Shown: positions 661 to 27,559 of the stretch, in pieces | How the letters are laid out: every line of letters begins with the position of its first letter | How positions within the stretch are numbered: position 1 is the first letter of the stretch | Origin: Porphyridium purpureum | Lineage: Eukaryota | Assembly (NCBI GenBank): GCA_008690995.1 | Contig: VRMN01000005.1 | Coordinates: forward strand, 682,001 to 746,000 | Direction of reading: 5' to 3' | DNA length: 64,000 nucleotides | The notes under the pieces: model-generated | Told to the model about the DNA's origin: nothing | Databases searched by the model: none | The model's input: only the letters and a program-made list of their open reading frames with translations | Position numbers and translations under genes: made by a program

Positions 661-770
661 GGGTCGGACGAGTGGGTCGGACGAGTGGGCCGGACGATAG
701 GACGGGACGAGTGGGCCGGACGATAGGACGGGACGAGTGGGCCGGACGAGAGGACGAGACGATTGGACGG
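661..770 (+). repeat. GGACGA-rich degenerate tandem repeat upstream of transposase 1
   Basis: gggtcggacgagtgggtcggacgagtgggccggacgataggacgggacgagtgggccggacgataggacgggacgagtgggccggacgag. Confidence 0.85.
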
Positions 771-830
771 CGCGAGGGGGCCGGGGAAGGGGGCCGTGCG
801 AGGGGAGTTAAAGGGATTCGGCGCATAGGC

Positions 831-3800
831 ATGGATAGTCGTGAGAGCCTCGCCCACAAGCCGTGGCATCGTCGTCGAGAGAAACGATTACAATGCGATG
901 GTGTCAACTGCGATTTTTCACCGCCTGAAGGACAAGGTTTATCTTACACTGCGCGGGTCCAAGTCATGCGAGAACACAAACTGTGCTGCAGACTGCGTGT
1001 ACGCACAGGGCGCATTCCATACGCGAATCTTCGACGGTCGACTGCTGTGTACGGTGGCCCATGCGATGACGATACACGCAGTGGAATTGACTTTGACGTC
1101 AGTGCCGGCATAGACAATCATGACGACAGCGCACGGGACAGCGACAATGACGGCGGTGATGACTTCGTGGACCCAGAAGAGCAGATTGAATCGGATGATG
1201 ATCTTGCTCTAGAGAATGACGCGGCAGACAATGATGAAGCCAACGAAGCAGAACGTATGGGACACGATGCAGCACAGATGAGCGATGCGTATCCTAGTCG
1301 AGAGATTGACGTCGAAACGCTTGTGACCCGTTATGCAAAGCGTTTTGAGAGATTACTCGACCAGAAGACTTTACGCCAGCGCCTACAACACCGCGACGAC
1401 AGCATCTCGAAGTACGTGCGCACGTTGACTGGCATAGGCTCATCGGAGAACATTGACATCGACGATGCAGTCGAAGTTCTAAGGTTTAAAAGTGAACAGG
1501 AGATGTTTATGCACAAGCACGCCATTTCCACTCGCGAAGCACTTGAACTAAAGTCGATGGAGATGCAGCTGTTACGCATCACTACTCGCACGACTCTTCG
1601 GTATATTACTCGAATAATCAGGCGTGCCTTTACGGATTTGAGAAGGAATCTATCGACCTGCGATGCATCTTTACTTGAGAAGGCCTTCTCTGTGATGCAA
1701 ACAAGTATCAACGAATCAGCTGCGGGTCTGGTTAAGCGAGCTTCGACCCTTCTTTTCACCCACAGATCTAAGCAATGCATATCGGATATCATCGGAAACA
1801 CAGTCATCGATGCTCAGGAGGCAATTATTGAATACGGCGCAGGGAAGACACTGCATGGGAAGATTTTACCTCGCAATGTGGTCCAAAAGATTCGCTTCCG
1901 TGAGCCAATGGAGCTCGCAGTAAATTCGGTTGTTTCCATCATCAGGGAATACGGTTTGGACGCCTTGAAAATCAATCTCTTCGAAGACCAACAGCGCAAG
2001 TCCCTCGTTTTCCCGCAAGATGGTAACCTGTGTGTCAACGCAGCTCGTCGCATCGCATTCGAAGTCAGGCAGAAATATGGTCCGGACCCACCTGAGGCAG
2101 TTCTATTTCCGCTGCAGATATACGCTGACGAAGCGCACATGACACAGAACGGGCGTCATACAATGACGCCGCTCAAGATCCGTATCGTGCATCGTCGCAT
2201 GTTCTGCTCAGATGCTCACCGTGAGCCACATGTCGTCGCGTATTTACCTGCGGTGGACACTGAATGCGTTGCTAGAGCATTCGGAGCGAGCCAAAACCTC
2301 CACATCAATGCAAAGTTGGCTCGACGTGAGCTCGAATCGTCGATGTATCACGCGATCATGAGCAAAACATTTTACGACACGCTAGCTGCTAACAAACATG
2401 GCATCCCAGTAACATGGCAGCAGCGTCGACTGCTTTTCTTTCCCATCGTGTACAAATTATCGATGGACATGCCAATGATATCAAAGTGCTCTTTCACCAA
2501 GGCATCGTTTGTATCCGGTGGGCGCGCGCAGAAAATGCCCTGTCATCAATGTATGGTACAAGCTCCACAATCATCGATACACACGCTCAGCACACCAGCG
2601 GCGCCACATCAAACAGAAAATGATGAGTTCTGGGTTACACGACGTCCCCTGCAGTATCGATCAGAGAAGAAAATTGAACACCTTGTGACCCAACACTTAT
2701 CCGAATGGGGAGCTTCGATGAGAAAGGCACATTCTCTGCAGTTCATCGGAGAACATGCAGCGATCGGATGGAATCGCTTCGACGAGAATGATGACAAAGA
2801 TTTCAACGAACTTGCAGCTGGATACGAGGAACACATAAGGCTTCTTAATCGTGGAAGGTTCCAACTGACCAGTATCGATGGGCTTCACGGTTTCTTGGCG
2901 TTCTGGTTCCGCGGCATAACCGTTGCCGGACTCAAGGCATTACTGAGCAAGCCAAATGTCACCCACCGAGTAGCAAACGTTGTCTTTGAACTCACGGAAG
3001 CGCAAGAGCGCGCGAAGCAATATTCAAAGCATGGGGAGGAAGAAGACGCAATCGGTGCCATGGCATCGCTTGATAGAAGCGAAGATACATGTGCCAGTGC
3101 AGGCGAGAGCAACAGCGAACATGGTTCCGAATCCAACAGCGAATGCGCGTCTGACATCGATGGACCATCACAATCTGGACAAGCGTCACCCGCAAAGAAA
3201 CGAAAGACAGCAAGCGCTCCGCCCAGCGGGACGAGATTTTCACACTCGAGTGCACATGGCCGTGCGCTCCCATTGAAGACGGCAACTCCAAAGCACAAAG
3301 GCAGCGCAACAGATCAGCTTCGCGGAATCATTGACTCAGCCGCTGGAAAAGCATGGAGCCGAATAGCCACGAATATCATGAATGAAGCCAGCTTCCGACG
3401 ACACGCTGTGTACACGCGAATTCGCTCCTCTAACTTCTTACTCGACTTGACAAAACTCGCTGAACAATCATACTCGCTTGGTCACCTTCTCCAAATGGTC
3501 GTACTCATACAACAGGAAGACATCCTCGAGGATCATGCACGCATTGCCTTCACCAATCTTGCAATTCGATGTATTCAGTTGTACGGCGTACTATATCTGC
3601 GAGTGATTCCCCGTGACCTGCTGATTCGCATCCCAAGTCTCACAAGTGAAGTGCAATCGCGGCTTCGAATATTCACACAGCGCATTAATCTACCTTGGAA
3701 TGCTCCAAAGATCCATGCGCTTTCTCACTTTGGCGATAATTTGGCGGACTTCGGGCCGATGAAATTTTGGGATACGACGGACGGTGAAAAATCCTTCCAA

Positions 3801-4745
3801 GTTGACAAGGTCTGGTTCAAGTCGCTGGTTGGTTCGGACACTTGGAAGCCGCATGAATCTATGCTACGCCGCGCTGCTAAGCACGAACTTGCATCGTTTT
3901 CGAATCGCTGGCTCTGACAACTAACGCGAGACGCGTATTTGAATGAGGGCCAACAATCAGACGTGCGGACGTTCACCAACACGGCACCAAATGTGAACAC
4001 AGCAAATCAAAGACACCCATGGTACCGGCATCGAGGATCGTCAATACATTTCTCATCGTCTTTATTCGGTGTCTGGCGCGACGCATGCACCGTCTGGACA
4101 TATACCAGAGAGAACGGGTTTCGAAGTGCTTTGGAATGGCAACCACAAATATGGAACCCATACGCTTCGCGTACATCCAACAGCACAAACAGCAACGCTG
4201 AAAGGGTAGCTCTATGGGCGAGAATGGATAGCGCTTTGAAACGTTTCGCGATGAACAAGTTCCGCGCTGAAGCGACGCATGCATCAGTTGTACTCGAGGC
4301 TTTTCGACAAATGCAGCTCAAGCACCGAAGGCAGACTGTCGAATGCATCGTCGCGCATCCGGATCACTATAAGAATCCACGATGGGACTTCGTCGAGTAC
4401 TCAAAGCACTCGACCCACCCGGACCAGTACGCGTACGGGAAATGCATCTTAATCGCCCGGATCACGATAAATACGGATGAGCACAACGAGACCTTCGATG
4501 TCGCAGTGATTCAGGACTTCGAAGGGCATGATGGAGAATCCTCCAAGTCGCCGTGCGCCAGCAAGTGCATGCGTCTCGAGCCCGTGTTCCACCACCAGAG
4601 ATTGCAAAGCGACTCCGTGCAAGTGATAGACGCGACGATGATAACAGGGAGGGTGACAGCATTCCAGGATACATCGCAGAAGCTTAGCCGATGGTATTAC
4701 TTCGTGAACCCGAACACATTTGAGGGCGTACAGGCATACAATTGA
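831..4745 (+). pseudogene. Plavaka-type (CACTA/EnSpm-related) DDE transposase, copy 1, with one in-frame TGA at 3915-3917
   Basis: ORFs 672..3917 and 3939..4745 are in the same frame. Likely start is ATG 831, which aligns with the copy-2 start. N-terminal C-x4-C-x20-H-x3-C Zn finger. Motifs FPLQIYADEAHMTQNGRHTMTP, KLSMDMPM, PCHQC, WNAPKIHALSHFGDNLADFGP..DTTDGE and C-terminal AHPDHY..PRWDFV resemble Plavaka transposases as I recall them. Collinear with copy 2. Confidence 0.8.
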
Positions 4746-4788
4746 AGTTGCGGTATACGAATCACTTCCCCTTTCACGCGAATCCCAT

Positions 4789-5070
4789 GCTTTTTCCGGC
4801 TGTTTTTCTCCGAGTTTTTCAATTCGTACAAGAAACGTTTTTCCAAAATTCAAGAAGATGCGATTGAAATACCTCAGATCACTCTACTATTCTGAAAGGA
4901 CAGCGGCTGAACAGATTTTCCACGAGTTTTTCTGCCATTTATTATTAGAGTTTTCTCAAAAAAGACAGACAATGGAAAAAGCACTGTACTTTTCGTGCTG
5001 ACACTGCAAGGAGTTTTTCCAAGAGTTTTTCCGGGCGTTTTTTTGCCATTTAGCACACGGACTGTCCGTG
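4789..5070 (+). repeat. Degenerate GTTTTTC(C) motif array downstream of transposase 1, ending in a 15-bp hairpin
   Basis: Repeated gtttttc/gagtttttcc motifs, then TTTTTTGCCATTTAG and CACGGAC-T-GTCCGTG (5056-5070). Mirrors the 3' region of copy 2. Confidence 0.6.
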
Positions 5071-5449
5071 CGGAGCATATCCTCACAAAAGTTTTCGCAC
5101 TCTTGGATGTGAATACACACGCCCACGACCGCAAATATTTCTGCCTTGATCCGTGTCGTCTCTTGCGAGTAGAAACATATGTGTAGAGGAAAGCATGTCG
5201 ATGAATTTTGCCCCCTTCGCTCACTTTGAAGACCAACAATGCGATACCTTCCGTAGCTCGTCCCGCTCTGCCTCGGTATCTCCAGCCCACCCATGAGCGC
5301 GCGGCTCCACGGGTTTGCATTTGCACATGCAGGGCCTCGAAAGGCGTCCGGTAAATCGTTTACGCCGGGCGTAACGTAGCGATACAAAGTCACACCGTTG
5401 CCCAATACTACTTCGAGCTCCCAGCGAAGGAGAGGGAGGTGGTTTATGG

Positions 5450-6415
5450 ATGAAAACGCCAGTCCTTGTGGAGACAGCAAGCGAACCGATGAGAAAAACG
5501 AATAACGCGCGGGGTTCAAAGCGTAAGCGTACCGGCGTCGAACCAGGTGTGGAGCCAGTGGGTCCACGCGCGGTGCCATCCCATTTGGCTCGCGCAGCCC
5601 AGATGCAACGTGAACATGATGGTGCAAAGTCAATTGACATTGCGGATATCCGGCACTTGCACGACTTGGGTCGTGCGAGCGATGGTATGGCGGTCAGTGA
5701 CGACGACGGTGTTGTCCATCGACTGCTCCGCGTACTGATGTTCGCCACTGACGTGATAGAAGACCGTGCCCGGATCAAGGAGCTTGAGATGAGGGTAGCA
5801 GCATTGTCCCGGAAGGTCACAATATTGGAGACTCGGATACACGGGAGCGTCGCCGTTGACTCGCTGGATGTCCGCGATATTGAGACACCAAAGTCGGTAA
5901 TTGGTGACGTGAGCCTTGCACAGTTCACGAGAGCCGCCCCGATATCGGACGCAGTAGCCGGGAATATCCGCGACATTTACACTCGTAGATGCGGCATCGC
6001 AAAAACATGGCTGCGTTCCATAGCCCCGCATGACAGACCTTACCCATATGAACTGGTTCTTGCAAGATACGCCGGATGGCCATGGTGGCCGGCCGTGGTG
6101 GTTCTCAGTATTGACGGACTTGGCCCTGAAGTTCTTATGAAAGGGTGCGTGCGAGATACCTCTGAAGAAGGCCGCAAGAAAGCCGACGAAGATGTGATGA
6201 CATTGAGGAAGGGTTGCATCGTTGTCCGTTTCCTTGGGAAAAGCGCCGCATCTTTTGTGTGGGTCCTCATGGAGCACACACATATGAAGCACGATTTTAC
6301 CCTTGTGGATGGTACGCCGAAAGGGCGCACAAAGCCATCGAAAGAGTTGGCGTCGGCGTATGCCATGGCGAAACAGTATGCTGATATCAGACTCAACGGC
6401 GCAAAGACCCGTTGA
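5450..6415 (+). CDS. PWWP-domain protein (putative chromatin reader), with a coiled-coil-like segment
   Basis: ELVLARYAGWPWWPAVVV...CIVVRFLG..ASFVWV...F...ELASAYAMA at ~6041-6385 fits the PWWP pattern. N-terminal basic patch SKRKR is NLS-like. Confidence 0.8.
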   Translation: MKTPVLVETASEPMRKTNNARGSKRKRTGVEPGVEPVGPRAVPSHLARAAQMQREHDGAKSIDIADIRHLHDLGRASDGMAVSDDDGVVHRLLRVLMFATDVIEDRARIKELEMRVAALSRKVTILETRIHGSVAVDSLDVRDIETPKSVIGDVSLAQFTRAAPISDAVAGNIRDIYTRRCGIAKTWLRSIAPHDRPYPYELVLARYAGWPWWPAVVVLSIDGLGPEVLMKGCVRDTSEEGRKKADEDVMTLRKGCIVVRFLGKSAASFVWVLMEHTHMKHDFTLVDGTPKGRTKPSKELASAYAMAKQYADIRLNGAKTR

Positions 6416-6473
6416 TGACATTTTGTCTGCGCAAGGCGAGCAATAAACTCCATTTATAAGCAGTACACTATGT

Positions 6474-8108
6474 TCAAGGTTTCGTGTCCGAACCAGAATA
6501 TTCCATGTAGTCCAGGAACGAAGGTGCAGATGCCGCGGATGGTGCGCCCATAGCTTGTTCGATATCGTCGCTTTCATTCATTGAGTTCACCGTTGGAGCA
6601 TGTGAAGGTCGGGGCAAACGACTAACAGACGCGCGCGGGCAATTGATGAGGCGCAATTGAGTTGCACGATATCGGATGGCTCGACACAAGCGTAGGTCTC
6701 CGTCGTTGATTGCGATATCGCTGTCACGGACACAAATTCGGCCCTCTTCGTCCAGCTGTATGGAATGGATATCCGAGCGAAACCAGCGTCGGCATGTCTG
6801 GATACACTTCAATATGCCCATGAAGCCCTTCTCAGGCAGCTTTCCATCAGCCCAAGACGTATATGTTTCCCAGTGTATTGGAATATTCCATTCGTCTTCA
6901 TTATCTCCAGGCATGTCATCACTTTCCTCCGATCGGTCTTACCAGTCCGATGCGGTGTCATCACGTGCTTGACACACTTTCGATATCGATGGTGCCCGCG
7001 GTTGAGCCGAAGAGACAAAGAGGGAGTGCATCTGCAGCTTACACAGCCCTTCCAAGTTGAGTCCGATATCAGCAAACGGAAAGTCTTTTCCATCCTTCGC
7101 ACCCGAGCGCAGGCCCAACAGTGACAGCATGAGCGAGTTTGACCACAGTGTCGACGACCAAGCCTTGTCAGATTCGGAACCGTCCCTATCCGGACGTAGC
7201 CATATGGAGTCCGCTTCATCGATTTTCAGCTCACGACAAAGGACACTGTAGTATGGATCTCTTTCAAGCGCCAATATTGATCGGCCATACTTTCCCAGGA
7301 CCTGCGTGATTGCGCAGTAGATCGCAGTCATCCAAGTGATACCGATATCGAGAGCTTCCTTCTCCTCGTTTGGCGTGATGCGGTCATCCAGTGGAGCTAA
7401 ATTTGTACCATATGGTGATACTGGCGTTCCGAACTTTCTGTACAGTCTAGAACTTAATAATGGCCGACAGGCAAACGACTTGACCGGTTCCTCAACCGTC
7501 CCGTCTCGCGTTATGCAGTCGACGACGCGACGCGCGGTTCCCAAGTGGGCCTTGAAAGCTGCCGCGAGCGACAAACGAATATTCCTACGGAGCCTATTTT
7601 TGGCACCTTCCAGCGATTCCTGCATCAAAGTAGTAAGTGCTTCGTCTTCCATCATGGACGGAGGATCCACAAACCCAATGTCAGTGTACCACATGGTAAA
7701 CATTGTCAAGCCCGGCGATGCCGCTGGCGTGTACGGCTCGCGATGATCATATGTAGCGGCAAGGCGCTCGAACTTGCGCCAGAAGTCCATACAGCCCGTA
7801 CCCGCGTCGTCGACCTTTACAACAGCAGGTAACAGCCCACGATTCACAATATTGCGCACAAAGATATCGGTCGCGGAGCCTCTTCTGGCTCGCTTCTTCG
7901 CTCTGTCTTTCCCGCGGCGCCGCCGCCCAAAATTGGAGCCATCGACTGTGGAAGACAAGGCTGGTGTGACCACAGCCTCCGCCGGCGCGTCCTCGTCCCC
8001 CCGCAGCCGCCGGGCCACTGCGCTGCGCGACGATATCTCAGCGCTGCGACTCATTCTAATATTGACACCCGCGCCACGGACACGCGCACCCCTTCCCAAG
8101 TCTGCCAT
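6474..8108 (-). pseudogene. Uncharacterised ~540-codon gene with one in-frame TAA (6939-6941)
   Basis: ORFs 6939..8135 and 6474..6914 are in frame, separated by one stop and 8 sense codons. Probable ATG at 8108. Basic NLS-like RRRRGKDRAKKRARR. No recognised domain. Confidence 0.6.
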
Positions 8109-8391
8109 ATGGCGCGCCACCTTCGAGACGCACAAGTTCGCCTATCTCTCTTCTCCCCCTTGGCGAGAGCGCGCGCAAAAAGACAAGTCGAGATTGGAAA
8201 AATAGAGCTATTTTCATATGAAAACGTGACCTTTTGGACGTGACCCGTGTGGGGTGTTGGGGACGGGATCGCATGCCGGCAAGTTGCGAAGGGGTCGCTT
8301 GCTCGCGGAGAGAGAGGGGAGCGGCGATATCGCGACAGAGGCAGGTTCTGCGGAGACGGGGATTTGCCGGCTGACGACAGCACTTGTCCAT

Positions 8392-11300
8392 ATGGAACGC
8401 TCGCTCGATTCATACCGGGCGGAGGCATGGGAGCTGGAAGACTTGTACGTGTCCGGGGATATCACCCAGGATGACTTGGACGCCACTCCATATGGACAAA
8501 GGATGTGTTTCGGGCCGCTGCTGCCGCCCGATCTTCTGCAGGTCTCTCGGGTGCGGCGCACGGAAGCCTTGCGCCGTGACGAGACGGCCGCGTCGGACCC
8601 GATGTCTCACGCCGATATTGGAGCCCGCGAGGCGCACCTGGGCATCGCTGTGAGCCATGCCTTTTTGATGTACTTCAGCAATATTGTTGGAGCTCTCAAG
8701 TGTCCACGTGGCGGCGTCACGGTGGCCCACTGGATCGCAGAAACCCCATATGGGCAGCATCACTATTCAGCCCATATGGGAGAGCGGGAGGTGGCACTGT
8801 ATCGCATGTTTCTGGCGGCGCAGCGCACGGAACGCCTCTTTGCGTGGTCATATGACGAATTCACGGGTGCGGTTGCCGACCAAAGTGCTCCGCGCCAGCT
8901 TTCATATGGACATAAGCGCAGGCGCACTGACGCAGGTGCACTCGGATATCCGAGCCGTGCACGCATTGAAGAGAGTCTAGACTTGGAGGCATGGCTGCTG
9001 AAGCAGAGATGCGAGTGGCCTCGCCGCCTGACAACCGTTGGCCCATATGAGCTCAGCCCAAAGCCGACGCGAAGTGACGGCTGGAACAGCGCATATGCTC
9101 ATTTTTACCATTTGCGCTCGCTTATGCCTACTGCGTACGGTGCGCCATCATATGATGCTGCGTTGGTGGTTCGCGGCCACGATGATGCGGTGGAGCGCAT
9201 CTCGAGGCTTACTCGCAACGCTTATCGGCTTCCTCAATTGCCGCGCAATATTGCATGCCCGTGCAACACAACAGGATACCCGGCCGTCATCTTCGTCCAC
9301 GAAGGCCCAAGGCTCCATGTGGAGACGATGCGGACACGTCCGCGCAGGGCAAGAGACGGTGACGAATTGTTCCCGAAGGGATGCTTGGCGCGCTTAGAAC
9401 GCATCCGCGCCGTGCGCGTGATGATGGACTTTGCGACAACGCTCCTCGATATCAGCACGTATGCTACCATATGGTTTGGCAGAGATGCTGCTCTTGCGCA
9501 TATGCGAAACTTGGTCCAAGAGCTCCGGAGCCGTGTCGTATCCGCTGACTACTCGGGGTCGGTCTTCCCATATGGGCCCACCGAGATGGATGAACAGCCG
9601 CAAAGGGTGTTTCGCTGGCCGCCACACCATACAGAGTATCATGGGCGCCGGCTGCGCGAAGCCTTCAGGATGGAAAACGTCCCGACCCAGCAGATTTCTG
9701 CAGATGGGCAGACTTATACCGTCCCACGCTACTCCGAGAGGCACGCCGTCGACATATGTGTAGCACGGCTGCGGAGCGCTCAGCTGTATGCTTGGCCTTC
9801 GATTGCGAGGACGCAATTGTATGCGTTCCGGGACGCGATAAATCCAGATGGAATGCACGTCCCGGAGTTACTCGCACCACGCTTCGATGTCGGCATGTGC
9901 AACATCCTGGAATGGGGCATTGAGCTATGGGACCACACGGTAGAGGCGCACAATCGAATATTCGCACATGTGACGCATGACTACCTGTAGGACGACCTGC
10001 CCGAACTGCATGCCACACCGAGGGACACGGACTTGGCCATTGCCAAGGTGTTTGGCAGCTTCCATATGGAGCACGGAGGTAGCAGGATCAACTTTGGCCT
10101 TCCTGAAGACCTCAATATTGATGCAGCCTCGCACGCAGCATCCATCGAGCTCGACACGGCAGCAATCCAGTATTGGAAGGCGCAAGAGACTGCCTTTGCC
10201 TGGGATCGGGGGAGCAGCAGCGTGTGGGTGCAATGGTTATCTGGCAACGTGACCCGAAGACATACGTACCGCGGACACCAGTGCACATCTAATGTGCGAT
10301 CAATAGAGTATGGGGGGTCCGCGCCATATAGTGTCTGGGTCGCCATGCTCAGGCGATTGTGGACGGATGGCTGGCAGCTGCAGAGGGGCCTTGAACGTGC
10401 GGCGGAGATGCTACCACGCCCATCCGAGCCGCGCACGCCACATGGCACCCGTGTTGAGGAGCCTTTTGCCCCGCAAACGTACCGCACGTCCAGCCTCGCA
10501 GGCGGTACTTATGGGCATATGCGATTGCCAGCGGCCAGCCAAAGTTGGAGCGATGTGGACATCGTGCGAAGCCCGATATCGGCATCTGCGCGTGCACTTC
10601 CGGCGTCCGCACACGTGGATATCCAAGACTGCTTGATCTGTCAATTTCCGGTGACAGACCAGTTCATCTACGAGTGCACGACCCTGCACCCGACATGCAC
10701 TAGCTGCCTGCGCATGACATATGCCTTTAAGGTGGCGAACATGTACAGCATAGAACTGTCGAACTTTCACGTGGATGACAGGTTCATGCGCAATTATAGC
10801 ATGTGCGAATTGTGCAGGAAGGCCGTTGGCGTCTGCCGCATATGCGAACAAAATTACGCATTCGCGCCCTTCCTTTTTGCCGGCGCAATCTGTACGGAAG
10901 GCTTCTCGGACGCTTTCGTCGACCATATGGAGAGATGTCTTTTAACATGGCACGTCACAGATTTTGCTGCCTTGGCCGGCTGCATCGCCGAACCCAGAAG
11001 CTCGGGCAGGTGGCGGATGTCCACGAACCCACCGCTCGTCGAACTGGTAGCAAGCCAGGCGCGGCGCCACTTCGCGCACAGCATATGCCACAATATTGTT
11101 CGCATAATGCTCGTCGAAATGCGCCGGGCCCGGGCTCGCCAGATGAGTTTACCAGTGGAGGATATCCAGGAGTTGCTGGGGTATTTCCCTGGAAATCGAC
11201 GCAGGCCGTATGGAATATCCCGCAAGCTTGCGTTTGACGTTCTGGACACGCGCCGATTTCCTGTGTGGGACGATATCGTCAACGAGTACAACATGTACTG

Positions 11301-11682
11301 GGATATCCGACCGGTCGTACAGGCAATTGGCTCGAGCCCAGATTGGCCTCACCCGCCGAACTTGCCCTGGTGCCAACATATGAACAGTACGTGGCGACCT
11401 GGGTATATCCGGCATTATCCGGGTCAGCGCATAATGGAGGATATCCTTTCATATGAGCAACAGCGGGCTCGCTGCTGGTGCAATTACTTCGTGTCGGAAA
11501 CCAAGCTCCGCATGCGGCAGGCACTAAGCGATCATTTGGTCTCGCTGCAGGAAGGCGGCACCGGGTTAATACCGCCGCGACTGCAAGAGCTTTGCGTGTG
11601 CGACGAGTGCAGGACAGGGCAAGGCGTGGCTGCTCATATGAGAAGATACCCAGGGCTGGCGGACGACATGAAGATCGCGTGA
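8392..11682 (+). pseudogene. ~1100-codon C3HC4 RING-finger-containing gene with one in-frame TAG (9988-9990)
   Basis: ORFs 8254..9990 and 10033..11682 share a frame with only one TAG between them. CLIC-x11-C-x3-H-x2-C-x2-C-x~32-CELC at ~10630-10815. First in-frame ATG at 8392. Confidence 0.65.
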
Positions 11683-11752
11683 TAGCTTGCCAAGAAGGCC
11701 ATCGCATATGCGAACCACGGCCTCGTGACGGGGCCGTTCAATACTTACCAGG

Positions 11753-12010
11753 TGTTATCCGCCGACCCCGCGGATACCTAGTCTTGCGGGATCCTTGCTG
11801 TGGCCTTGCTGTGGCCTTGCTGGAACCTTGCTGGTCCACTGTCATTTTTCTCACAGTGCTACCCGGCGAGCTGGAGAACACGGGGCGGCAGTCTATAAAA
11901 AGGCGTGGAGACCCGCGAGCAGGCTCGGGGACAAAAAAGAAGAAGAGAGAGAGGAGCGAAGGGGAGAGAAGAAGGAGAGGGAAAGTAAAAGGAAAAGGAG
12001 GTTCATAACA
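11753..12010 (+). mobile_element. Solo LTR (258 bp) with 5-bp target-site duplication CCAGG
   Basis: Begins TGTTAT and ends ATAACA. CCAGG at 11748-11752 and 12011-12015. Internal TATAAAA (~11894) followed by a purine-rich tract. Confidence 0.9.
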
Positions 12011-12285
12011 CCAGGTGCCGTCAATATTGACGTGGTCACTGAGTCAATGCCGTGACCACGCTCACAGCACAGAATGATCCATGTAGACGGGGTACAGGAA
12101 GTTGAAATATATTAAATATTAATAAATTCAAAAAAATAATTCTTTGGCGTAGAAAACAAAACTTGTTGTCCCTGGAGGTACAGCCAGACCAAATGGTTAC
12201 GAGGAACCCTAAAATCCTTAACTGTTAAGGATTTTAGTATTAACGAATTACATGTCCGCATTAGTGGAAAGTATGAACGGGAGTG

Positions 12286-15200
12286 TCAACGGGCGAGTAA
12301 CCTTAAATACACGGTTGTGGATGTCCACTCGTCAACGCATTCGTGGTGGGCTAGCATATACGCTTCGAAGCTTCCGGATGAAGGTACAAGAACACAATCC
12401 TGGATTATCTTTTTCAATGCAATGTTCGACCTGCTGTAGCGCGTGCCCGGCGCGAGCTCTGCACGGATGACCTGGAGTATGCGGTGCTTGAATCCGATGA
12501 AACTCTTATTGTGCTCCTCGGCCAATTCGAAATACTTGCTGGCAAGCTCCGTTCGGAGCTTGCGATTCATCTGACCGATCCTCATCGAGGTCTCTTCCCC
12601 CGTATGCCGCATTCTTGACCATGTCGTTGTTCTGCGCGAAATGAGTCCATCCGGTTCGAAGAGAATTCGAAGCTTGATCAGTTCATCCGATATCGTGCGC
12701 ACTTGTCCGTAGTCAGCGTATTCGGACATAGCGTCAATATCAGGATCTCTCATACGTTGCTGAAAACCATTGTTGTTCAGATCCTTGGGCTCGACGAGGA
12801 TCTGCCACGAATGCAAGAAATGTGGCGTCGGATTCAACCACATCAATACTTCTGGCACATTTGCAAATATCGCAGCCGTACAAGAATCCGTATGCATCGT
12901 CCTAGTGATTGAATCAATGTATCCGGGTGAGAGCCATACGCGCGGTGGCATTTCCCATGATCTTGCCGACGTTCGACGGCGACGCGAACCCACCTTGTAT
13001 TCGTATTTGTCATCTTCCACCGGATTCTCAGCACGACGAAATAGATCCCATGTAAATTCGACAATCGCTGGAACTGCACGAACGAAGTATTCGATGATAT
13101 CATTCATTGCCGGATCATGCTTTTCGTAGTCCTTGAATACATATCGGCTCTGAAAGTGGTCCACGATCTGCCGCGTGATACGAATTTGAGCTGCAAAGTA
13201 ATGCCATGCGATGTGATAGCGTGCGACCCACAGTCGTGTATGAAGTTCGCTGAATCGATTATACTGGTCCATTCGAAAGCTCCTTCCGTGTTTATCCGAA
13301 TCAGCGTGATGGCGCGTTACATCGAATACAGGCCATTGCCTCCTCCATTCAATCACACTTTCTACTCGCACCTGGAACGACGGCCAGTAGGCACAGATCT
13401 CATGGAATGCAGTAATCGTATGCACGCTCGATAGGTATGAACCACTCGGATAACCATTCACTGTATCCATTTCTGGCGAGAAGCTCGTGGAGGTATCCGA
13501 ATATTTTCTGAGCACCTGGTCATACGCGAAAACATCAATTTCCTTTGTTTCAGCGAGCAACATTCGCCGCGTCACTTGATTCCGACCGAATCCAACCCTG
13601 GCATCCATCGACCGTTTGTAATACGCATGTTCATATGCTGCTTCGATGCATCGTTGTTCTTGATCACCCCCCCATCGTTTTCTTCCGGCACAACAAGAAT
13701 CGATGTGCGTATCGGATGCCACGCAGCACATCCTGAAGAGGATGAACCGGAAGGCGCTCCACAGTGCCAATCGGATTCGTATACACATCTTCGTAAGAGA
13801 AATCATCGCATGAACATCCGTATCGAGAATCACATTTGTTTCCCATCGAAGCCGTATGCGTGTATCGACATGGTCTGTATGCCATACAGGCAAGCGCGCC
13901 TTGGACTGCGCAAGTCACCGCATACCATTCGTTGGCTAGAGATTCAAAGTGACCTAAGGCATCAAATCCACGTCGCATCTCCGCTGGTTGCATTAATTCC
14001 GTATTATCCATCGGATGTGCAAATCGGAGCCTTGCGTACGCATTATTCATATTCAAGGCATTGATACGGATTAGATCCCAGAGCATTGCTGTATCTCTCA
14101 GCATCCATGAAAACATGCCGCTATCCGCTATCGTGAAGCCAGTTGGGTCTGATGGATGATTCATCACCCGAATAATATAATCCTCGGATGCAAACTTTCG
14201 TCCTCGGTAACCCGTCGTCTTCTTCGTCGCCAGGTGGGGTACCTTCTGAATGAGGTACGCACCGATATCCGCGTGCAGGAATTGACAGTCATCCGAAGTA
14301 AACGCGAATTCATCCGTAAAGTATTCGTCTACTGTGTAGTTGCTGTACAGCAGCGCATTCGGAAGCTCTGCACCGTTATGGTCTTCGCGTGGAGAGTCTT
14401 CGCACGGAGTGACTTCGAAAAATTCGAGCCCGGTCAGACCGTCGGTGAAATTCTGATGCGGATCTTTGTTCTCGAACGACCATGCCGTAAGCATTCGCAT
14501 GTAGAAGTCGACGTTCAGAATCACATCCAAAAGATGCAGACCCACCTTGTCATTTTCCTTGGCCTCTATGTGAATGGCCTTATACGTATTCTCACTTGCA
14601 TCCTTGTACATCGCACTGAATCGATCTATGATATCGTAATGCGAAAAGCCTCGTCTGATGGACTTAGGTTGCTGCATCGGATGACTGCTTCGACCGAGAG
14701 TGCACGTATCTGTCCGTGCACGCTTCGGATCCTGACGTGAAGCAAATATCCCAGGCACATTTCGGATATCACTTCGAATTTCTCCTCGGATATAGCTAGC
14801 TCCCGGATCGTCTTCGCGGCTGTATGAAGCCGTGTCATACTTGACATTCCCATATCCGCGGGGAATCTGTCCCGGGCGCGGGAGCGAACTGCTTCCTCGC
14901 CTTTCGAATGGCGCACGGTACGTTCCGGATCCAGAACCACTTGGCATATCAATTCTACCATACCCAGGCGGGCCTCGTAGCGTTTTCTGGGTATTCGGAT
15001 TCAGCGCAGCGGCCCCAAGTCGCAGCGAACTCGCCGAATTACTACGGATGAGTCCACCACGAATGCGACGGCTGCGCTCATCAGCATCCGATGCTTCACT
15101 ACTTTCGATCGAATCCGACATTCGTCGTTTCCCTTTGTCAACAGTCGAGACCCTTTTCGATCGCCGAGTATTCGGATTCACGTCAGACTCAGCATGCTGT

Positions 15201-15919
15201 CCTGAAGGTGCGTTCGAATCACGCAAATTCGTTCCAGGCGTTCTCTTGACACGCATATCCGTATCCATTTTCGCAGCGTCCAACGAATCTCCGGATGCAT
15301 ATTTCTCTGCACCAGCACCTGCTGCAGGTAGTCCGGTATCCGCTGGAAGGTGTCCGCGCAATGCTCTTGCCGACACACTCTGCGAATCCGACGACACAGA
15401 AACCGCGCGAATCGGAGATCGACGGCCAACACTGGACATGGATGTGGTCGACTTCTTCGCAGTATCCGAAGCCTTTCCCACGATATCGGACGGTTTCGCA
15501 CCGACGTCCTTCACTGGATCCTCCTTCGGATTTGCACCGACGTCCTTCACTAGATCCTCCTTCGGATTCGTCTCCGCGTCCGCGCATTTCGCACCAATCG
15601 GATCACCTACCGCAGCCGTCTCAACTGAAGCCGTAGCTGGCGCGGACTCCGACGGCACTTTTTCCACATCCCTCTCAACTTCATCATTCGGATGACCTCG
15701 GACGGCTGCCTTCAGTTTCGACGATGCTCCTCGCACTGCCGAACCCTGACCCGCACCGGACGCACGCCCAGGCTCCACCTTTTTCGTCGCCGCCGGATAC
15801 GTCGCTTTACCCCCCTTGCCCTGCGCACTTCCGGATACCACTTTCCTTCCTTTCGACGGATTCGGATCCGCCACTTTCTTCCCGGTGTTCTCCATCTCGT
15901 CCCGCTCACCACCACTCAC
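12286..15919 (-). pseudogene. Large uncharacterised gene (~1200 codons), divergent from transposase 2, probably one gene with a frameshift near 13.7-13.9 kb
   Basis: Overlapping ORFs 13664..15919 and 12286..13893; the latter frame is open from 13914. Low-complexity N-terminal third includes a 12-aa duplication NPKED(L/P)VKDVGA. Aromatic-rich, globular-looking C-terminal part. No recognised domain. Confidence 0.6.
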
Positions 15920-18900
15920 GCACCCGCACTGTCCACCTCCGCGCTACCGCGCTACCGCCCTCTCCGCCTTGTCCGCCTTGTCCGCCTTCCCAGCGCTTCC
16001 TACCTTCGCACAACCCACCTTCTCCGGATCACACCAACTTCCCCACACGACCTGCTCTTCGCCACACGGCCACTGCGGCCTGCGCGTTTGACTTGTATCG
16101 AATTTGATGGACCCAAATGAAAAAAATGGCAGAATTGAATGGCATGTGGGGTTTTGTCGGGAAAATTACGCATTCACAGAGAGAAAGCTTTACATTAACT
16201 ACCTCTTTGGCTTGCCGTGGTACAAACGCTACGCCTGCGTCCAGGAAAGACACGCGCGTCGGATTGACGGAAGGCTTTGGAGGCGGAACGGATACAGCGT
16301 GACGTGCGCGAAAACATACGGATAGGAAGACTTCCCCAAACCGCGAATGGACAGACAGCAAGGCCTCGAGAGCAACGCTTGGCATCGACGTAGAAACAAA
16401 CGTATCCGATGCGATGGGACCCGATGCGACTTCACCGTACCAGAGGATGAGGGATTGACTTACTCCACGCGACTTCACATGATGCAGTCACACAAGCGCA
16501 AATGTAAACTTCGCATGCATCCGAATCGACTCCCGTATACGCAGGCCTACTTATTTGATGCGGACGACGGTAGTTTGCGGAGGGAGGACAGTCCGGATGA
16601 TACGGGAAGCGCAAATACAGAAACGATGACTGGACGAGGCAGTGAGCTTCCTGATATCCGGATGGATGACGAGGACCCGGAAATGCAATTTCATTCGGAT
16701 CGTGACATTGACAGCGGTTGCGAGAGCTTGCATGCAAACCTGACACAGGATGCGGAAATGTATCTAAGACCGATGGAGCCGGTGCGTTGCGGAGAAGAAG
16801 GAGAAGAGCAAGTCGAATATATCTTAGGTCCGTATGCCAAGCACTTTACTGCGTTATTAAACCAAAAGACTTTACGAGAGCGCTTGCAAGATCGTGACGA
16901 CGAGATGTCAAAATTCGTACGGAGTCTGACAGGCGCGGGTGAAATGGAAGATGTTGATCTGGATGAAGCAATCGAGATGATACGATTAAAAACGACCAGG
17001 AAGTATTCATCCAGAAGCATGGGATATCCGTACGTCATGCCACGGACTTAAAGTCGATTGAAACCAAACTCTTACAAATTGCTATCCGTATGACTCAGCG
17101 CCAAGTAAGCCAGCTGACAAAACACTCATTTACCATGTTGAAAAGGTATCCGTTAAACCACGAGGCGTCTCGAATCGACGCTGTATACGCTGCATTACAA
17201 AGCAAATTGAACATAGCTTCCTCTCACGTGCTGAAACGAGCAACAAAACTTCTTTTCATATTCAGATCTTCGAAGCGGATGTCTTCGCTTCTTGGCAATC
17301 CGAGTATTAAACCTGTTGAGACGTACGTCGAGTATGGTCGCGGAATCCGACTGAGACGAAACACCCTACGCCGGAACGTGAAGCAAACGATCCGATTTCG
17401 TGAATCGATGGACATCGTCATGCGTTCAGCTGCAGCTATTATTGATGAATACGGATTGGAGCCATTCGTTATCGACTTATTCAAAACCCGGGATCGCGAA
17501 ATAGTGATGCATCCGCAGGATGGAAACCTCTGCATCAGCGCAGCCCGTCGGATAGAATTTGAAGTGAATCGAAAACATGGACCGGATCCACCTCAGGTTG
17601 TAATTCTTCCAATACAGATATTTGCGGATGAGTCCCATATGACCCAGAATGGACGACACACAGTCACGCCACTGAAGATACGAATAGTACATCGAAGGCT
17701 GTTTGATACACACTCTTCCCGTATTCCTCAAGTCGTCGCATACTTACCACCTGTGGATACCCGAAGTATTGCACGAGCATTTGGTGAGGAAACAAGTATC
17801 CGCATTGATCCGAAGCTAGCCAAAAGAGAGCTCGAATCGTCCATGTACCATGCAATTATGAATAAGGCATTCCACCATCTCATGATCGCGAATAAATTCG
17901 GAGTGCCAGTCCTGTGGAATCATCGCCGCTTGCTTCTTTTTCCTATTGCATACAAGTTGTCAATGGACATGCCGATGATCTCAAAATGCTCATTTACGAA
18001 AGCTTCTTTTGTATCCGGATCCCGTGCTCGAACCATGCCATGCCATCAATGCATGGTGATAGCACCAGAGGCCACAACTCGAGCAGTCGAAGCAGGACCA
18101 AAGTCGGATGCATCCAAGGCAGAAGAGTTCTGGATTACGCGTATTCCTCTGCAATATCGCTGTGAGAAGCAGGTTGAACCTTTCATCACGCAGAATTTAT
18201 CTGCATGGGGCACGCTACAGAGAAAAGAACAATCTCTCCACTTTCTCGGTGACTCAGCGGCTATCGGATGGAATCGATTTGATGATGCCGATGACGTTGC
18301 ATTCAATGCAACGATATCCGCATTCAAACACAAAATACATCTGCGCAACCGCGGGAGATTTCAACTGACAGGCATAGATGGCTTGCACGGATTCCTTGCA
18401 TTTTGGCTTCGAGGTATCACAGTCGCTGGTCTCAAAGCATTGCTGAGCAAACCGAATACTGTACACGAGGTAGGCCTCGTCGCTGAGAGACTCACGGAAG
18501 CGCAGCAGCGAGCTACGCGACACTTGAACGAAGTAGAACATTCGGATTTTCCACGCATGTGGGCTTCACTCGATTTCGATGAACAAAGACATGGAAGTGC
18601 ATCCGAAGATACCAGTGGCGATGATTCAGAGTCGCATGACGAATACTCTTCGGATGATGAAATTGTCCGCGCGAATGAAAGAAATTCGTCACAAACGAAT
18701 ACACGTCAAAGACCAAAGGCCAAAACAAAGACGAACGACTCTCACATCAATCCGAGGAGGGCAGAGTCCAACAGAAAGGGCAGCGTATCTGACCAACTTC
18801 GAGGTATCATTGACTCAGCAGCAGGTAAAGCTTGGAACCAAATTGCAACGAAGATAACGGATGAGGCGAGGTTCCGGCGACCAGCGACATACTCTCCGAT

Positions 18901-19845
18901 ACGATTATCTTCGTTTTTATCCGACTTACCCAAATTCGCAGAACAATCATATTCGCTGGGCTTTCTACTTCAAATGATTGTTCTTGTACACCAGGAGCAT
19001 TTACTCTCGGATCGTACACGTGAAAGCTTTACCGAACTTGCAACCAGATGTATCCGACTGTATGGCGTACTATACAAAGAAAAGCTGCGTCGACCATGGC
19101 TTGAACTCATCCCAAGGCTCACATCCGACTTGCAATCCCGACTCGATTTATACAAACGGCAGATCAATCTACGTTGGAATGCTCCGAAAATACATGCACT
19201 GTCTCACTTCGGGGACAACTTGACGGATCTGGGACCGATAAAGTTTTGGGATACTACGGATGGAGAGAAATCGTTTCAAATCGGCAAGGCGTGGTTCAAA
19301 TCACTGGTCAGCGCAGATACGAATATCCCACATAATGTCATGCTGCAGCGCGCAGAGGTGTTCGAAATCGGATCTTCTTCTTCGTACTGGTTTGATAAAC
19401 TTACAAGGAACAAGGATTCGAATGCAATTGCATATACACACGAACAAGTATCCGATAAAGCATACACACATACACGAGAATCGGATGCCGCTCGAGCGTG
19501 GTACCGGCACCGCTCGTCTTCTGTGAACTGTTCATCGATCCTTTTCGGAATTTGGCAGAACGCGTGCACTACTCTGACGTACAGCAGCGAATCCGGATTT
19601 GAGGCTGCCCCTTCATGGCGACCAACGGCATGGAACCCTTCTATATCATTCGAATCCGCTGATGACGAAGAAACGAACATGCTCTGGTTGCACACGGATA
19701 CGGCTTTGAAGACGTATGCATCCGAGAAACTCCAAACGGCTGTGACTGATGATACTGCAACCTTCCAAGCTTTCAGACAAGTTCAACTGAAAAAGCCTTG
19801 CGACGAAGCCGAATGCATTGTTGCACATCCGAATCACTATCGTTC

Positions 19846-20104
19846 TGTCAATTAATTAAATAATTAATTAACTCTCGCTGTACCTACAGGGGTACAGCCC
19901 CCCTCAATATAACCACTTGGTTATAATGAGGGTCTCCATCTCTCTCCCTGCTAGTCCTAGTATAAAACTACGCCGAGTCGCGGCCGGCCTAGCCGTCAAA
20001 AAGTAAACAGACAGAGTCGACAGAAAAGAAGAAGAGTTCATAAAACTTTGTTGGGTCGCCGAGATAGCTTGGCAACTCGGCTCTCAGATCCGTAGGGATT
20101 GACA
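19846..20104 (+). repeat. 5' LTR of the Copia element
   Basis: Direct repeat of 26304-26562 with 7 substitutions by my comparison. Contains TATAAAA. Confidence 0.95.
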
Positions 20105-20605
20105 TTAGCTAATTACGTTCCTAACGGTGAAAGAATACAAGTGACTGAAGACAGATGACGCGACCGACGCGGAATACCGCGGGCGCGGGTGGAAGTAGTG
20201 TCACGGGAGTAGCCCGTGTGTTAAGGAAATGATTAAAAAATAGCCATAGTCCGTGGCCGGATACCTGGTCGCGCCGGACCCACTGTACTGTAGGTGTACA
20301 AGGGGGCGCGTGGTAGGCCTGAAGGCCCCTACCCTTAGGGACCAGACGCGCGATGACCACCCAGTATGGAATGGGTGTACAGCCAGGAGGTGGCTGGAAC
20401 CTTCTGGAAGGTTCTAGACTCAGCGACAGCAAGGCACTGTACCTCGGGGGTACAGTGGTCGCAATGGGTATAAAAAGACGCGCGGGTCGGCAACCAAGGG
20501 GGGGAGAGGGGGGCCGGGAGACAGAAGGAGTAAGGTGGATCTAAGTAAAAACAGGTGTATGCAAGGAAGCGTGTTCGGGCCTTGGGTACCTGTTGAGGAG
20601 CGGGG

Positions 20606-20646
20606 GTACAGCGGGAGTACAGCGGGAGTACAGCGGGAGTACAGCG
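20606..20646 (+). repeat. 11-bp tandem repeat (GTACAGCGGGA x~3.7) in the Copia leader
   Basis: Read directly from the sequence. Confidence 0.85.
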
Positions 20647-21076
20647 CGAGCGAGCGAGCGGGGGGTTTAACGGGGAAGGTTCGCGGATGCCCTGGGGTAA
20701 GGCGTCATTAGACGGTCCTTGTTCGGAAGCGGATCCGGGGGTGGTACGTGGGCGGGGGCGGATAAAGGAGTGATAGGCCGTTTGAAGCCGAAAGGTGAGG
20801 TAACCTCCTCTGGCTAACCCCGGCTGCCCACAACGCCTCCCCGGGTCCCGGATCACCGTAAGGTGTGGCCGAACGGGATCCCGGTTGGGCAGCGGACGCC
20901 TGGTTCCCCCGTTACGCGCGTCTTCCGTGTGTGTGCTTTTGGTTGGCTGTGCCTGCTCCGTGCGTGTGCTCTTGGTTGGCTGTGTCTTTCCCGTGTGTCT
21001 GCTCTTGGTTGGTTCTGTCGGTCCCGTGTGTGGGTGCTCTTGGCTGTTTGCGTGTGAGCAGCGTGCGTGAGCGTCG

Positions 21077-22771
21077 TTGGTTCCGGGTTTCCTGCCTGCC
21101 GCAGGTCCAGTTGACTGCGGGTGTCTTGTGTTTCCTCTTGGTTGCGTGGATTGTCCAGCTTGTGTGCGTGCGTGTGCCGCTTGGCTTGCTGTTGGGTGTG
21201 CCGCTGTGTCCTGGGCCAGCACGGTTCGTGACAGTAGCGACGGAGACCGTCGAATTGGCGCTGCAGCGGAGCAATCTCCGGATCAAGATACACAGGTAAA
21301 TATAGAGACAAATCGTGAGGACATTCGTCTGGTCTCCGCGGGTGTTGCCGATACTTCCATTACGACAGCTTTGGCTTCGATCGATTTATCCGGTTTCTCC
21401 TTTGAGAAGAGACTTGCCATAGAAGATCTGCAAGAATTTGTCACGATGTTCCGTCAGTACAACGGTGTAGCTCTCATGACGCAGATGGTACGTCGCTTAC
21501 CATTTTCGAGCATCATGAACGCTGGAATCCTCGCCAGAGAAGAATTTGTTTCCTTTTTAATGAATACGGAAGTTCCAGGATTCCGTGCGACGGATCCACG
21601 CGTTTCTACAGAGGAGAAGTTTCGTCGAATTTATGACAACGCGCGTAGCACATCGATCGATCAAGGAAGCACGGTGCGAGCTGATGAGCCATCGCCATCC
21701 AACCATCGCACGGGATCACGCGACGGCGAGGTCTCAGGCATGGCTGCTATTTCGCTCTTGACCAGTTCGAATCCCGCAACCGGTCGGACATTGGCACAGA
21801 GCGCGGCGGATATGTCAAAACTCGTGCGCTCGGATATGATTTTCCACATGGATGAGTTCGTTGACAAAGTTTCGTATCGAGCTTGGAAAGAAGAACTCGC
21901 GCTCTCTTTCGTGCGAGCGGAGGTTGCCGCTGAGCACCGTCCGCTCCTCGTTGGGCTTACTTTGGGCGGCGCAATTAAGGAGCACTACCAGCAAAATGCG
22001 CGTTATGACGCACCTATTTCAGATGTTTTTGCAATTCTCGACAACAAGGTGTTTTCAGGTGAATACAACGAACACATGATGCACAATTTCGAAACAACAA
22101 AGTTTAGTGACTTGGTTGTACGCATGCGGGGGGCTCGGACCAAAGCAATTCTTTATAATCTGTATCATCGAGTGCTGAAGTATGCACAAAACTGGTTACC
22201 GGATGAATACCTCGGAGACAAACGTCTTCTGCGTGCCTTGCGCAACGCGGTTTAAGACGAGCACTTCGCATCCGGCGTACTTCTCAAGAATTTCGACAAA
22301 GGCGACGATCTATACGAACACCTCGCTGGCTGCTTGAACAGGCGTGCGCGTTAACGCACCGACAATTCCGATCGGAGAATCCACGCCAACGCTGCGAACA
22401 CGCGACAACTCGTAGAAGGGCCGATCGCCACTTCGCATCGCCCGCTTTTCGCTCGCGATCTACGTCATGTACGTGATCAAGATTCCCGTCGCGCAAATCA
22501 TGCAGACAGTCGGGCATGTCTTAACTGCAATCAACCCGGTCATCTTTTTCGCGCGTGTCCTTCGCCTCTGCGTCCAGAGCTGCAACGTCAGCTTGCAACA
22601 CAGCCTGTCCGTTCACTCCTCCAGACATTTGATTTCGAATATGACTGTACATCGACCGCACAAGAACCGACTGAGTCGCCGGACGACACACAACAGGATG
22701 ATGAGTTTTATGGTCCCGTCCCATACGCACAGAATGATTCGGGGGAAGAGCACGGGGTTCCGGACAACTGA
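21077..22771 (+). pseudogene. gag: Copia gag with two internal TAA stops
   Basis: ORF 21077..22255 continues in frame past two TAA stops to a zinc knuckle CLNCNQPGHLFRAC (22517-22558). The frame ends at TGA 22769-22771. Confidence 0.8.
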
Positions 22772-22806
22772 TAACCAATTCGGGACCCCTATATTCGGAC
22801 TACGAG

Positions 22807-25857: not shown

Positions 25858-26303
25858 CCAGGCCCGCGTCCTGTCGCACCATTTGTAGGTGCTGACGCCA
25901 GCTCGCAGCGTAACCCATGCAAGTTCATGGTCAAGACGCCGACCATTTTCGCTCAAGTTCTGTCTGCAACGGTTCCGTGGCACACCACGGATGATTCCGA
26001 CGACCTTTCGCCCATTGCAGGCACCGTGTCCGACATGCGCCCAAGTGATCCTGCCCGCAAACCGATTCTCGCCTTGCGCAGTCCCTCGCGAAACGCCTTC
26101 TCCGTCGCCAACAGGTCCGCTTTTTCGTGCGGGGGACTTTCCTCGGGTACTCGCTGCGTTGGCGTTCTCGAAATTTCATTCTCGCAATCTGTTCTCATCG
26201 AGATGAACTTGCTCCTCTTCTCGTCATCTCGTGCGCCCCTGCCCCACGTCGGTCTCATGTTTCAATGAATTTTATAACATGACCCAGCAGAAAAATACTG
26301 GAG

Positions 26304-26562
26304 TGTCAATTAATTAAATAATTAATTAACTCTCGCTGTACCCACAGGGGTGCAGCCCCCCTCACTATAACCACTTGGTTATAATGAGGGTCTCCATCTC
26401 TCTCCCTGCTAGCCCTAGTATAAAACTACGCCGAGTCGCGGCCGGCCTAGCCGTCAAAAAGTAAACAGACAGAGTCGACAGAAAAGAAGAAGAGTTCATA
26501 AAACTTTCTTGGGTCGCCGAGATAGCTTGGCAACTCGGCTCTCGGATCCGTAGGGACTGACA
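26304..26562 (+). repeat. 3' LTR of the Copia element
   Basis: Direct repeat of 19846-20104. Confidence 0.95.
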
Positions 26563-27277: not shown

Positions 27278-27559
27278 AATGATATTGCAGTTCTTCTATA
27301 AGGACTAATAAATGCTGTACGCACCCATAGTCTACTGTACCTACAATTTTCATCTGTTGTCGATCAGTTTTCGGTCAATTCTCGATCAGTTTTTCGATCA
27401 ATTTTTCGACACTTCAGCATCACAATGTTTGGACGCTGCACGACAGGTACAGCAATAAACAATGCAATACATGCTTACATCTATTTCAGTTTTCCGGTCA
27501 GTTTTTCGCCCATTTGTGTAAAGATTAATCTTTACTCCAACTCGAGGATTACAAGGCGG

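Follow-up and report, generated by a model that had tools for sequence, protein, structure and literature searches.

How does a transposon come to carry, all through its genes, short palindromes that share a core but not a sequence? This question is raised by a stretch of 64,000 nucleotides of the red alga Porphyridium purpureum (contig VRMN01000005.1, positions 682,001 to 746,000), which we call the window and number from its first letter. A preliminary description had singled out positions 5071-12060 as a block of cargo genes saturated with perfect palindromes centred on ATAT. The pattern is real and far beyond chance. It lies in the palindrome-rich part (5065-12060) of a Plavaka-like DNA transposon, here element C, which holds 76 ATAT sites.

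The earlier counts hold. The region 5071-12060 contains 31 CATATG, 22 GATATC, 14 AATATT and 9 non-palindromic NATATN, and no TATATA, whereas the other 57 kb of the window hold 159 ATAT, including 12 CATATG, 22 GATATC, 15 AATATT and 5 TATATA. ATAT itself is enriched 3-4-fold in element C, with one site per about 90 bp. As had been reported, 24 of the 31 CATATG extend to palindromes of at least 8 bp (CC 11, GC 6, TC 5, AC 2), and all six palindromes cited there as examples lie exactly where they were placed. Seventy of the 76 sites fall inside open reading frames (ORFs), and the palindromes occupy all three codon phases, again as first described.

The unit of the pattern becomes apparent when bases are compared across the core. 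At arm positions 1, 2, 3 and 4, pairing is found in 67, 61, 41 and 21 of the 76 sites, respectively, whereas a permutation of half-sites (10,000 rounds) gives means of 25.8, 25.3, 19.7 and 19.6 and maxima of 45, 38, 34 and 34. Since position 4 is at chance level, the unit is a 10-bp word, NNN-ATAT-N'N'N'. Examples of 12-14 bp are chance extensions of this word (7/33); the last palindrome of the block, at 12019-12032, measures 14 bp. Perfect 2-bp arms flank 54 of the 76 cores and perfect 3-bp arms 33 of them. The arms differ among sites, with 22 different 3-bp arms across the 33 perfect 10-bp sites and 10 different 8-mers, so the enriched feature is symmetry itself and not a fixed sequence, as the preliminary description had proposed. 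Pairing occurs in register only; longer or off-register stems around the ATAT sites were looked for and found no support.

Codon usage does not reproduce these figures. In the three cargo genes 62, 49 and 30 sites carry arms of at least 1, 2 and 3 bp, against 16.8, 6.4 and 2.9 expected from synonymous-codon shuffles (1000 rounds; maxima 27, 16 and 9). The shuffles fall short by more than 10 standard deviations, and the earlier dismissal of codon bias is borne out. The same procedure applied to four ORFs of neighbouring elements gives 14, 5 and 1 observed against 10.0, 3.1 and 1.3 expected. When all cores of 2-6 nucleotides were scanned, ATAT was exceptional in element C (54/76 with 2-bp arms, p 1e-45), together with words nested with it but no others; the neighbouring elements and the host DNA of the window have no such core.

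The sites have further properties. The GC share of arm positions 1, 2 and 3 is 0.79, 0.85 and 0.61 against a background of 0.56, and T is excluded from position 1. Fully asymmetric ATAT is depleted: the rest of the window predicts 8.7-11.1 such sites, and 2 are present (P 0.008 and 0.001). Where position 1 is mismatched, position 2 is still paired in 7 of 9 sites, and cores one base off ATAT have 3-bp arms more often (14/209) than those elsewhere (39/1986); both kinds look like decayed or half-built palindromes. Spacing is slightly more even than random (coefficient of variation 0.78 vs 0.98, between the 1% and 5% null quantiles), and it shows no period, the top power of 5.9 being equal to the null mean. 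At places where codons forbid symmetry, an avoidance of ATAT is not significant (2/33 vs 26/145, p 0.11).

Which DNA bears the pattern? By sequence comparison, element C is a third Plavaka-like (EnSpm-group) family of the window, of which the downstream two-thirds are present. Its left part is cut off at 5064/5065 by another transposon, element A; contigs of runs X4 and X5 match the window from 5065 on and continue into other sequence. The right end probably lies at about 12060-12180; Plavaka/CMCT termini are CA..TG or TGT..ACA, with terminal inverted repeats and a 2-3-bp target duplication. The term ‘cargo block’ fits in so far as three cargo genes lie in it, but the block begins with the tail of the element's own transposase gene (5065-5183, forward strand), which was recognised by tblastn of P0002 (95%) and of P0004. 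The latter is a gene model from another copy of the family and fuses an 1100-amino-acid (aa) transposase to a PWWP protein, and its residues 1082-1127 match window positions 5064-5201. The P0004 transposase core is 25-27% identical to both other transposases of the window, and its motifs DEAHM, MDMPM, CQQC, HLLTH and DGES align with both. It thereby shows the D, D, C(2)C, H(3)H and E motifs which define Plavaka and relatives (PMC12730594, in the part considered here), although its last 40 codons alone fall in this window. No Pfam family matched the transposase. Copies are dispersed, as copies of the PWWP gene are found on contigs of four different lengths.

Three genes follow the transposase tail. 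The PWWP-domain gene (5450-6415, forward strand, 321 aa; Pfam PF00855, E 1.5e-6) belongs to a 90% cluster of five P. purpureum proteins, P0004 among them. An orphan gene of about 544 aa lies on the reverse strand (6474-8108) and has a premature stop at 6939-6941 in this copy; position 6941 is G in runs X1 and X4, which opens the 544-aa frame. The largest gene, another orphan of about 1142 aa (8254-11682, forward strand), contains an in-frame TAG at 9988-9990 and is read through it because the frame is the same on either side; the TAG is probably premature in this copy. Compared with the X5 haplotype, this gene differs at 17 of 247 synonymous and 10 of 785 non-synonymous sites, a rate ratio (dN/dS) of about 0.19, and is under purifying selection. 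The palindromes are thus present in genes selected for their protein. Seventy RNA reads map to the 1142-aa gene, nearly all in sense; they fit the X5 haplotype and some enter other sequence at 8569, so they possibly stem from a truncated copy. The translation of 10630-10815 (forward strand) contains a Cys/His cluster which we take to be RING-like from its RING-HC-like spacing, C-x2-C-x11-C-x3-H-x2-C-x2-C...C-x2-C; Pfam detected no RING.

The signature is absent from the two other Plavaka elements, the copia element and the host genes of the window. A genome-wide over-representation of palindromes was not found either, the other 57 kb of the window being free of the signature. Within the family, the pattern extends to the proteins. 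In the P0004 transposase, 44 peptides allow an 8-bp ATAT palindrome, against 16.7 in shuffled sequence (maximum 28); the three cargo proteins have 11, 20 and 45 such peptides, against 4.2, 8.6 and 15.9. All four family proteins are therefore about 2.3-2.8 times above shuffled sequence, and ten other ORFs of the window are at background. When 16 cores were scored in the P0004 transposase, only ATAT was far above chance (z 8.6). The places where codons permit an 8-bp palindrome carry ATAT in 60 of 76 cases, compared to 28 of 89 in control ORFs (p 7e-10). The pattern is close to saturation and has altered the proteins of the element. The earlier claim of a transposon setting stands, but in view of the peptide imprint in P0004 the signature has to be assigned to the transposon family as a whole, with its transposase, and not to a cargo block. 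An apparent imprint in P0008, a 250-aa protein which shares a C-terminal domain (window 6570-6900) with the 544-aa protein, was discounted: the count is 9 vs 4.2 (z 2.6), and two other of the 16 cores scored at least as high as ATAT.

Other sequencing runs contain the same sites. Illumina contigs of runs X1, X4, X5 and X9 span the block and carry them, which argues against an assembly artefact. Run X1 differs from the window once over 5996-6575 and four times over 5401-6025, and the best matching pieces show 1-4 differences per 600 bp. Raw RNA reads of run X21 span 8560-9600 and reproduce the sites. Runs X17-X20, with a small share of words, do not enter the comparison. In 40 of the 615 rows of differences, 14 lie inside the element, none of them within a 10-bp site. 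Haplotypes were compared over 1041 bp with 15 ATAT sites in four runs, and the results of this comparison refer to 40 of its 50 variant rows. No indels were found between the haplotypes. The variable arm positions are distributed as one at arm position 1, one at position 2 and four at position 3; the variant at position 1 is at 8619, where most other copies have a perfect site. The 60 core bases are without variant (2.3 expected, p 0.26). Synonymous variants occur in 6 of 21 arm sites and in 16 of 206 sites outside, an excess with p 0.007, or 0.02 if five further rows are assigned outside the arms; this test is post hoc, its sample is small and the changes are not polarisable.

Run X1 contains at least three haplotypes. 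Over 9227-9394, one haplotype in X1 and X4 shows 12 differences in 168 bp, and this stretch contains one ATAT site plus two one-off sites. At 9880-9909, run X4 reads GATATC in place of the window's AACATC, in a diverged relative of the 1142-aa gene that differs at 10 of the 30 bases. This single instance is a hint of site turnover between subfamilies.

How could such a pattern arise? We are slightly inclined to believe that an enzyme encoded by the transposon reads or writes symmetry itself, in that it either cuts ATAT and mirrors the flank or recognises mirrored sites. By the same reading, and with a similarly small inclination, the sites would constitute a self-signature independent of sequence, repeated in every gene at intervals of about 90 bp and paid for with altered proteins. 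In the explanation which we favour, with a probability of roughly 0.45, the palindromes were written by a cut-and-copy ratchet restricted to the DNA of this transposon. A putative nuclease would nick or cut element DNA at the AT|AT axis; the cut end would then form a fold-back, from which repair would transfer at most about five bases of one half to the other. For instance, a hairpin at the axis which is reopened 4-5 nucleotides from its tip and rejoined would leave one arm mirrored and the length unchanged. Symmetric sites would be a stable end state, able to repair their own core; they would pile up wherever the protein tolerates them, and asymmetric ATAT would be consumed. The cutter may be the element's own RAG1/EnSpm-type transposase acting in cis, or one of the orphan cargo proteins. 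Transposases of this type are familiar for their hairpin chemistry. Cutting, fold-back and copying are steps that we infer. A fixed core, free mirrored arms, the 10-bp limit, the loss of asymmetric sites and unconserved arms are what the ratchet predicts. Moreover, free arms, in-register pairing and the chance level at position 4 fit a fixed cutting or copying length better than selection for stem stability, and the same can be said of position 3, where GC is not enriched. The near saturation in the proteins of the family, the lack of indels between haplotypes and the weakness of the hairpins on their own also speak for the ratchet.

Several observations weigh against cut-and-copy writing. The 3-4-fold gain of ATAT requires half-site recognition or core self-repair in addition to conversion. 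The GC bias at positions 1-2 and the lack of TATATA suggest a read-out of sequence or of pairing, and the spacing is somewhat even. Neither an arm-swap nor a multi-base arm change was seen at the 15 sites in three or more haplotypes, and the 6 variable arm positions all differ by single bases. At 8901 and 9042, position 3 is paired although position 2 is mismatched, a state that contiguous copying would not leave. Sequence, profile and fold searches found no nuclease or methylase domain in the cargo proteins. Finally, it has to be assumed that the cutter spares the neighbouring elements.

The most serious rival to cut-and-copy writing, which we regard as possible but distinctly doubtful, is a selected self-tag: a protein encoded by the element would bind either an ATAT-loop mini-hairpin with a GC-rich stem of 2-3 bp or a symmetric, bent duplex. 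Equally tentative is the corresponding use, whereby the family would coat and recognise its own copies for anti-silencing or mobilisation, in the manner of VANC in VANDAL elements, with the PWWP and RING-like cargo acting on chromatin. Such a tag accounts directly, and more simply than a ratchet, for family specificity and GC bias. Chromatin-type cargo, the exclusion of T at position 1 and the fairly even spacing agree with it, as do the invariant core bases and the fact that pairs are gained and lost between haplotypes by single, non-contiguous bases. A precedent is VANC21, which requires a high density of its own motif (PMC5735166, in part); however, the VANC motifs treated there are fixed words, and they were gained through tandem repeats outside coding sequence. 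Stem selection should also reach beyond 3 bp, whereas symmetry stops at 3; the arms are more variable than background, not less; and no DNA-binding domain was identified in the element proteins. Symmetry without a fixed sequence is hard to read in duplex DNA. Forced DNA hairpin stems reach +0.2 to +2.2 kcal/mol with 2 bp and -1.9 to +0.3 kcal/mol with 3 bp, so that of the hairpin or cruciform option raised in the preliminary description the free-standing form is marginal and a hairpin read by a protein is retained, as is the mutator proposed alongside it. Because the hairpins are weak and wobble-type mismatches split evenly between mRNA and antisense strands (14:14), nothing favours an RNA stem. 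RNA stem-loops were rejected for want of a G-U strand bias and because the flanks fold no better than shuffled sequence (z -0.1).

The remaining explanations are less probable. Host defence by methylation, deamination or a targeted nuclease, with the palindromes as survivors, is unlikely. The premature stops of this copy arise from C>T/G>A-type changes and ATAT is the double-transition product of ACGT and GTAC, but at the purine/pyrimidine level 117 of 585 RYRY cores are palindromic where about 78 are expected. Transitions alone cannot yield the palindrome count and a transition-only mutator is ruled out; plain deamination, or the methylation put forward earlier, is insufficient, and a methylase site would need no symmetric arms. 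CpG is not depleted (observed/expected 1.12), and the adjoining transposons, which share its nucleus, are unaffected. If a host-guided cutter were followed by copying repair, this explanation would become one with cut-and-copy writing. Even less probable are excision scars, by which a hairpin-forming transposon that went in and out at AT/TA would have left every site as a P-nucleotide footprint. P-nucleotides, hairpin excision footprints (RAG, hAT, EnSpm) and quasi-palindrome template switches all duplicate a flank as a short mirror image whose sequence is free. Scars would account for a constant core and for mirrored arms, 1-3 bases long, of any sequence, and an insertion with an 8-bp target duplication is present in the element. 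Footprints, however, alter length and sit at former insertion points, whereas the haplotypes show no indel, the transposase alignment (25% identity) shows no excess of gaps, and 62 sites stand in open, constrained reading frames. In-frame scars should peak at arms of 1 and 4 bp, yet the observed peak is 3. Of the 34 compatible sites in that alignment, 18 are free of gaps in their vicinity; 11 lie near insertions, not significantly different from 186 of 829 in the background (p 0.21, a test limited by the 25% identity). Scars also give no reason why only this family is hit. Template switches, for their part, require an existing near-palindrome and have no fixed core. The chance of an assembly or base-calling artefact or of codon bias is negligible, given the contigs of four other runs, the raw RNA reads, the imprint in the P0004 transposase and the outcome of the codon shuffles.

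Is the pattern known from other systems? Our comparisons refer to parts of the papers cited. HIP1 of cyanobacteria (GCGATCGC) is a fixed octamer, spread genome-wide and tied to known methylases, for whose origin both repair ratchet and selection models have been proposed (PMC13756078; PMC5861425). Like HIP1, the sites of element C are a short palindrome iterated through coding DNA by substitution, without indels, and ratchet and selection are again the competing models. Unlike HIP1, these sites keep constant no more than a core of 4 bp, between arms that mirror each other but vary freely, and they occur in a single transposon family; instead of one palindromic word, there are the many different 8- and 10-mers counted above. 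The VANDAL/VANC motifs of Arabidopsis are fixed 8-9-mers in non-coding tandem repeats of a single orientation (PMC5735166). They resemble the sites of element C in being short, specific to one family and dense within a DNA transposon of several genes, but the sites of element C are symmetric, variable, dispersed and mostly coding. Because HIP1 and VANC are fixed words and scars change length, the motif grammar of element C fails the defining tests of the systems compared, and no match was found among the known iterated-motif systems considered. In the papers searched by full text, which represent part of the literature, ATAT-palindrome patterns of this kind are undescribed.

The transposon that carries the pattern belongs, as a new member, to a known group. 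Fungal PlavakaA/B are EnSpm/CMCT-group transposons with accessory genes (PMC12730594), and a red-algal giant Plavaka carries the accessory genes PAG1-3, of which PAG2 combines an N6-adenine methylase with SET and PAG3 combines ParB with a 2OG oxygenase (bioRxiv 10.1101/2025.02.11.637652). As in the red-algal element, three accessory genes stand beside the transposase in a red-algal host; unlike the PAG1-3 cassette, the cargo of element C consists of the PWWP gene plus two orphans. Domains of the PAG2/PAG3 type gave no Pfam, NCBIfam, PHROG or PDB match in the cargo, although PAG3 itself escapes InterPro. The inverted repeats of Bostrychia are tandem arrays next to PAG3, in contrast to the dispersed, coding palindromes of element C. 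The main text of the bioRxiv paper, supplements aside, mentions neither Porphyridium nor palindromes.

Either way, the pattern would imply new biochemistry: a site-directed mutator that copies arms, or a protein that reads 10-bp symmetry regardless of sequence. If true, this would be a eukaryotic, element-restricted counterpart of HIP1 whose code is pairing rather than sequence. The system is small, with four genes and built-in controls in the adjoining elements, and the choice between ratchet and selection for iterated palindromes, as debated for HIP1, is testable here because arm-swapped alleles separate the two.

Homologues of the cargo proteins are scarce. Word-indexed searches with 8254-9987 and with the 1142-aa read-through came back empty, and in such a search the PWWP protein matched nothing but itself. 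The C-terminal domain of the 544-aa protein has one distant homologue, P0008 (phmmer E 2.8e-5, 30% identity); phmmer matches of this protein to cadherin and FG-GAP repeats were spurious. Related loci were not found in JGI metagenomes or viral contigs, no phage matched, and the cargo gave no match of note in PHROG, NCBIfam or PDB sequences. A single-sequence model of the 544-aa protein was unusable (predicted confidence, pLDDT, 33), and a two-sequence model of its C-terminal domain (pLDDT 54) had no Foldseek match at E <=0.001 (best Z 4.3). The ESM Atlas gave no usable match for 8254-9990. For P0007 it returned unnamed ciliate clusters at 0.94 and PAS-family clusters at 0.85-0.89, which serves as a lead only; the 544-aa C-terminal domain leans to PAS-like families (0.85-0.89), a tendency that the fold search did not confirm. 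A DPPS stretch in the 544-aa protein loosely resembles what we take to be an N6-methylase motif, with no search in support.

Near its right end, element C contains a later, high-copy insertion of 255 bp without ATAT (11755-12009), recognised from a joint that skips 263 bases in runs X1, X4 and X5. It is flanked by an 8-bp target duplication, ACCAGGTG, at 11747-11754 and 12010-12017. The insertion is non-autonomous, has short GTTAT/ATAAC-like ends and reaches 7-60 times the depth of its flanks. No repeat family was found within 5071-12060. Short hairpins occur at the edges of the block, one with a 7-bp stem at 5057-5071, which spans the junction with element A, and one with a 9-bp stem at 12031-12059.

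The adjoining elements serve as internal controls without the signature. Element A, represented by its transposase and right end, occupies 672-5064 on the forward strand. Its transposase (672-4745) is 27% identical to that of P0004, and its codon 3915-3917 is TGA in the window but TGG in three runs; 13-bp tandem repeats lie at 637-805. Element B (12286-26900) has its cargo ORFs on the reverse and its transposase on the forward strand. The transposase is split by a copia element at 19846-26563, whose 260-bp long terminal repeats (19846-20105 and 26304-26563) are 97% alike. The cargo comprises two orphan ORFs of 535 and 751 aa, and a 12-bp subterminal array follows at 27002-27295. A weak further homologue of the 535-aa ORF is located at 30072-30566. 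Further downstream, a foldback structure at 41139-43225 consists of inverted arms of about 495 bp with 87% identity (41209-41703 and 42020-42507) and a shorter outer pair.

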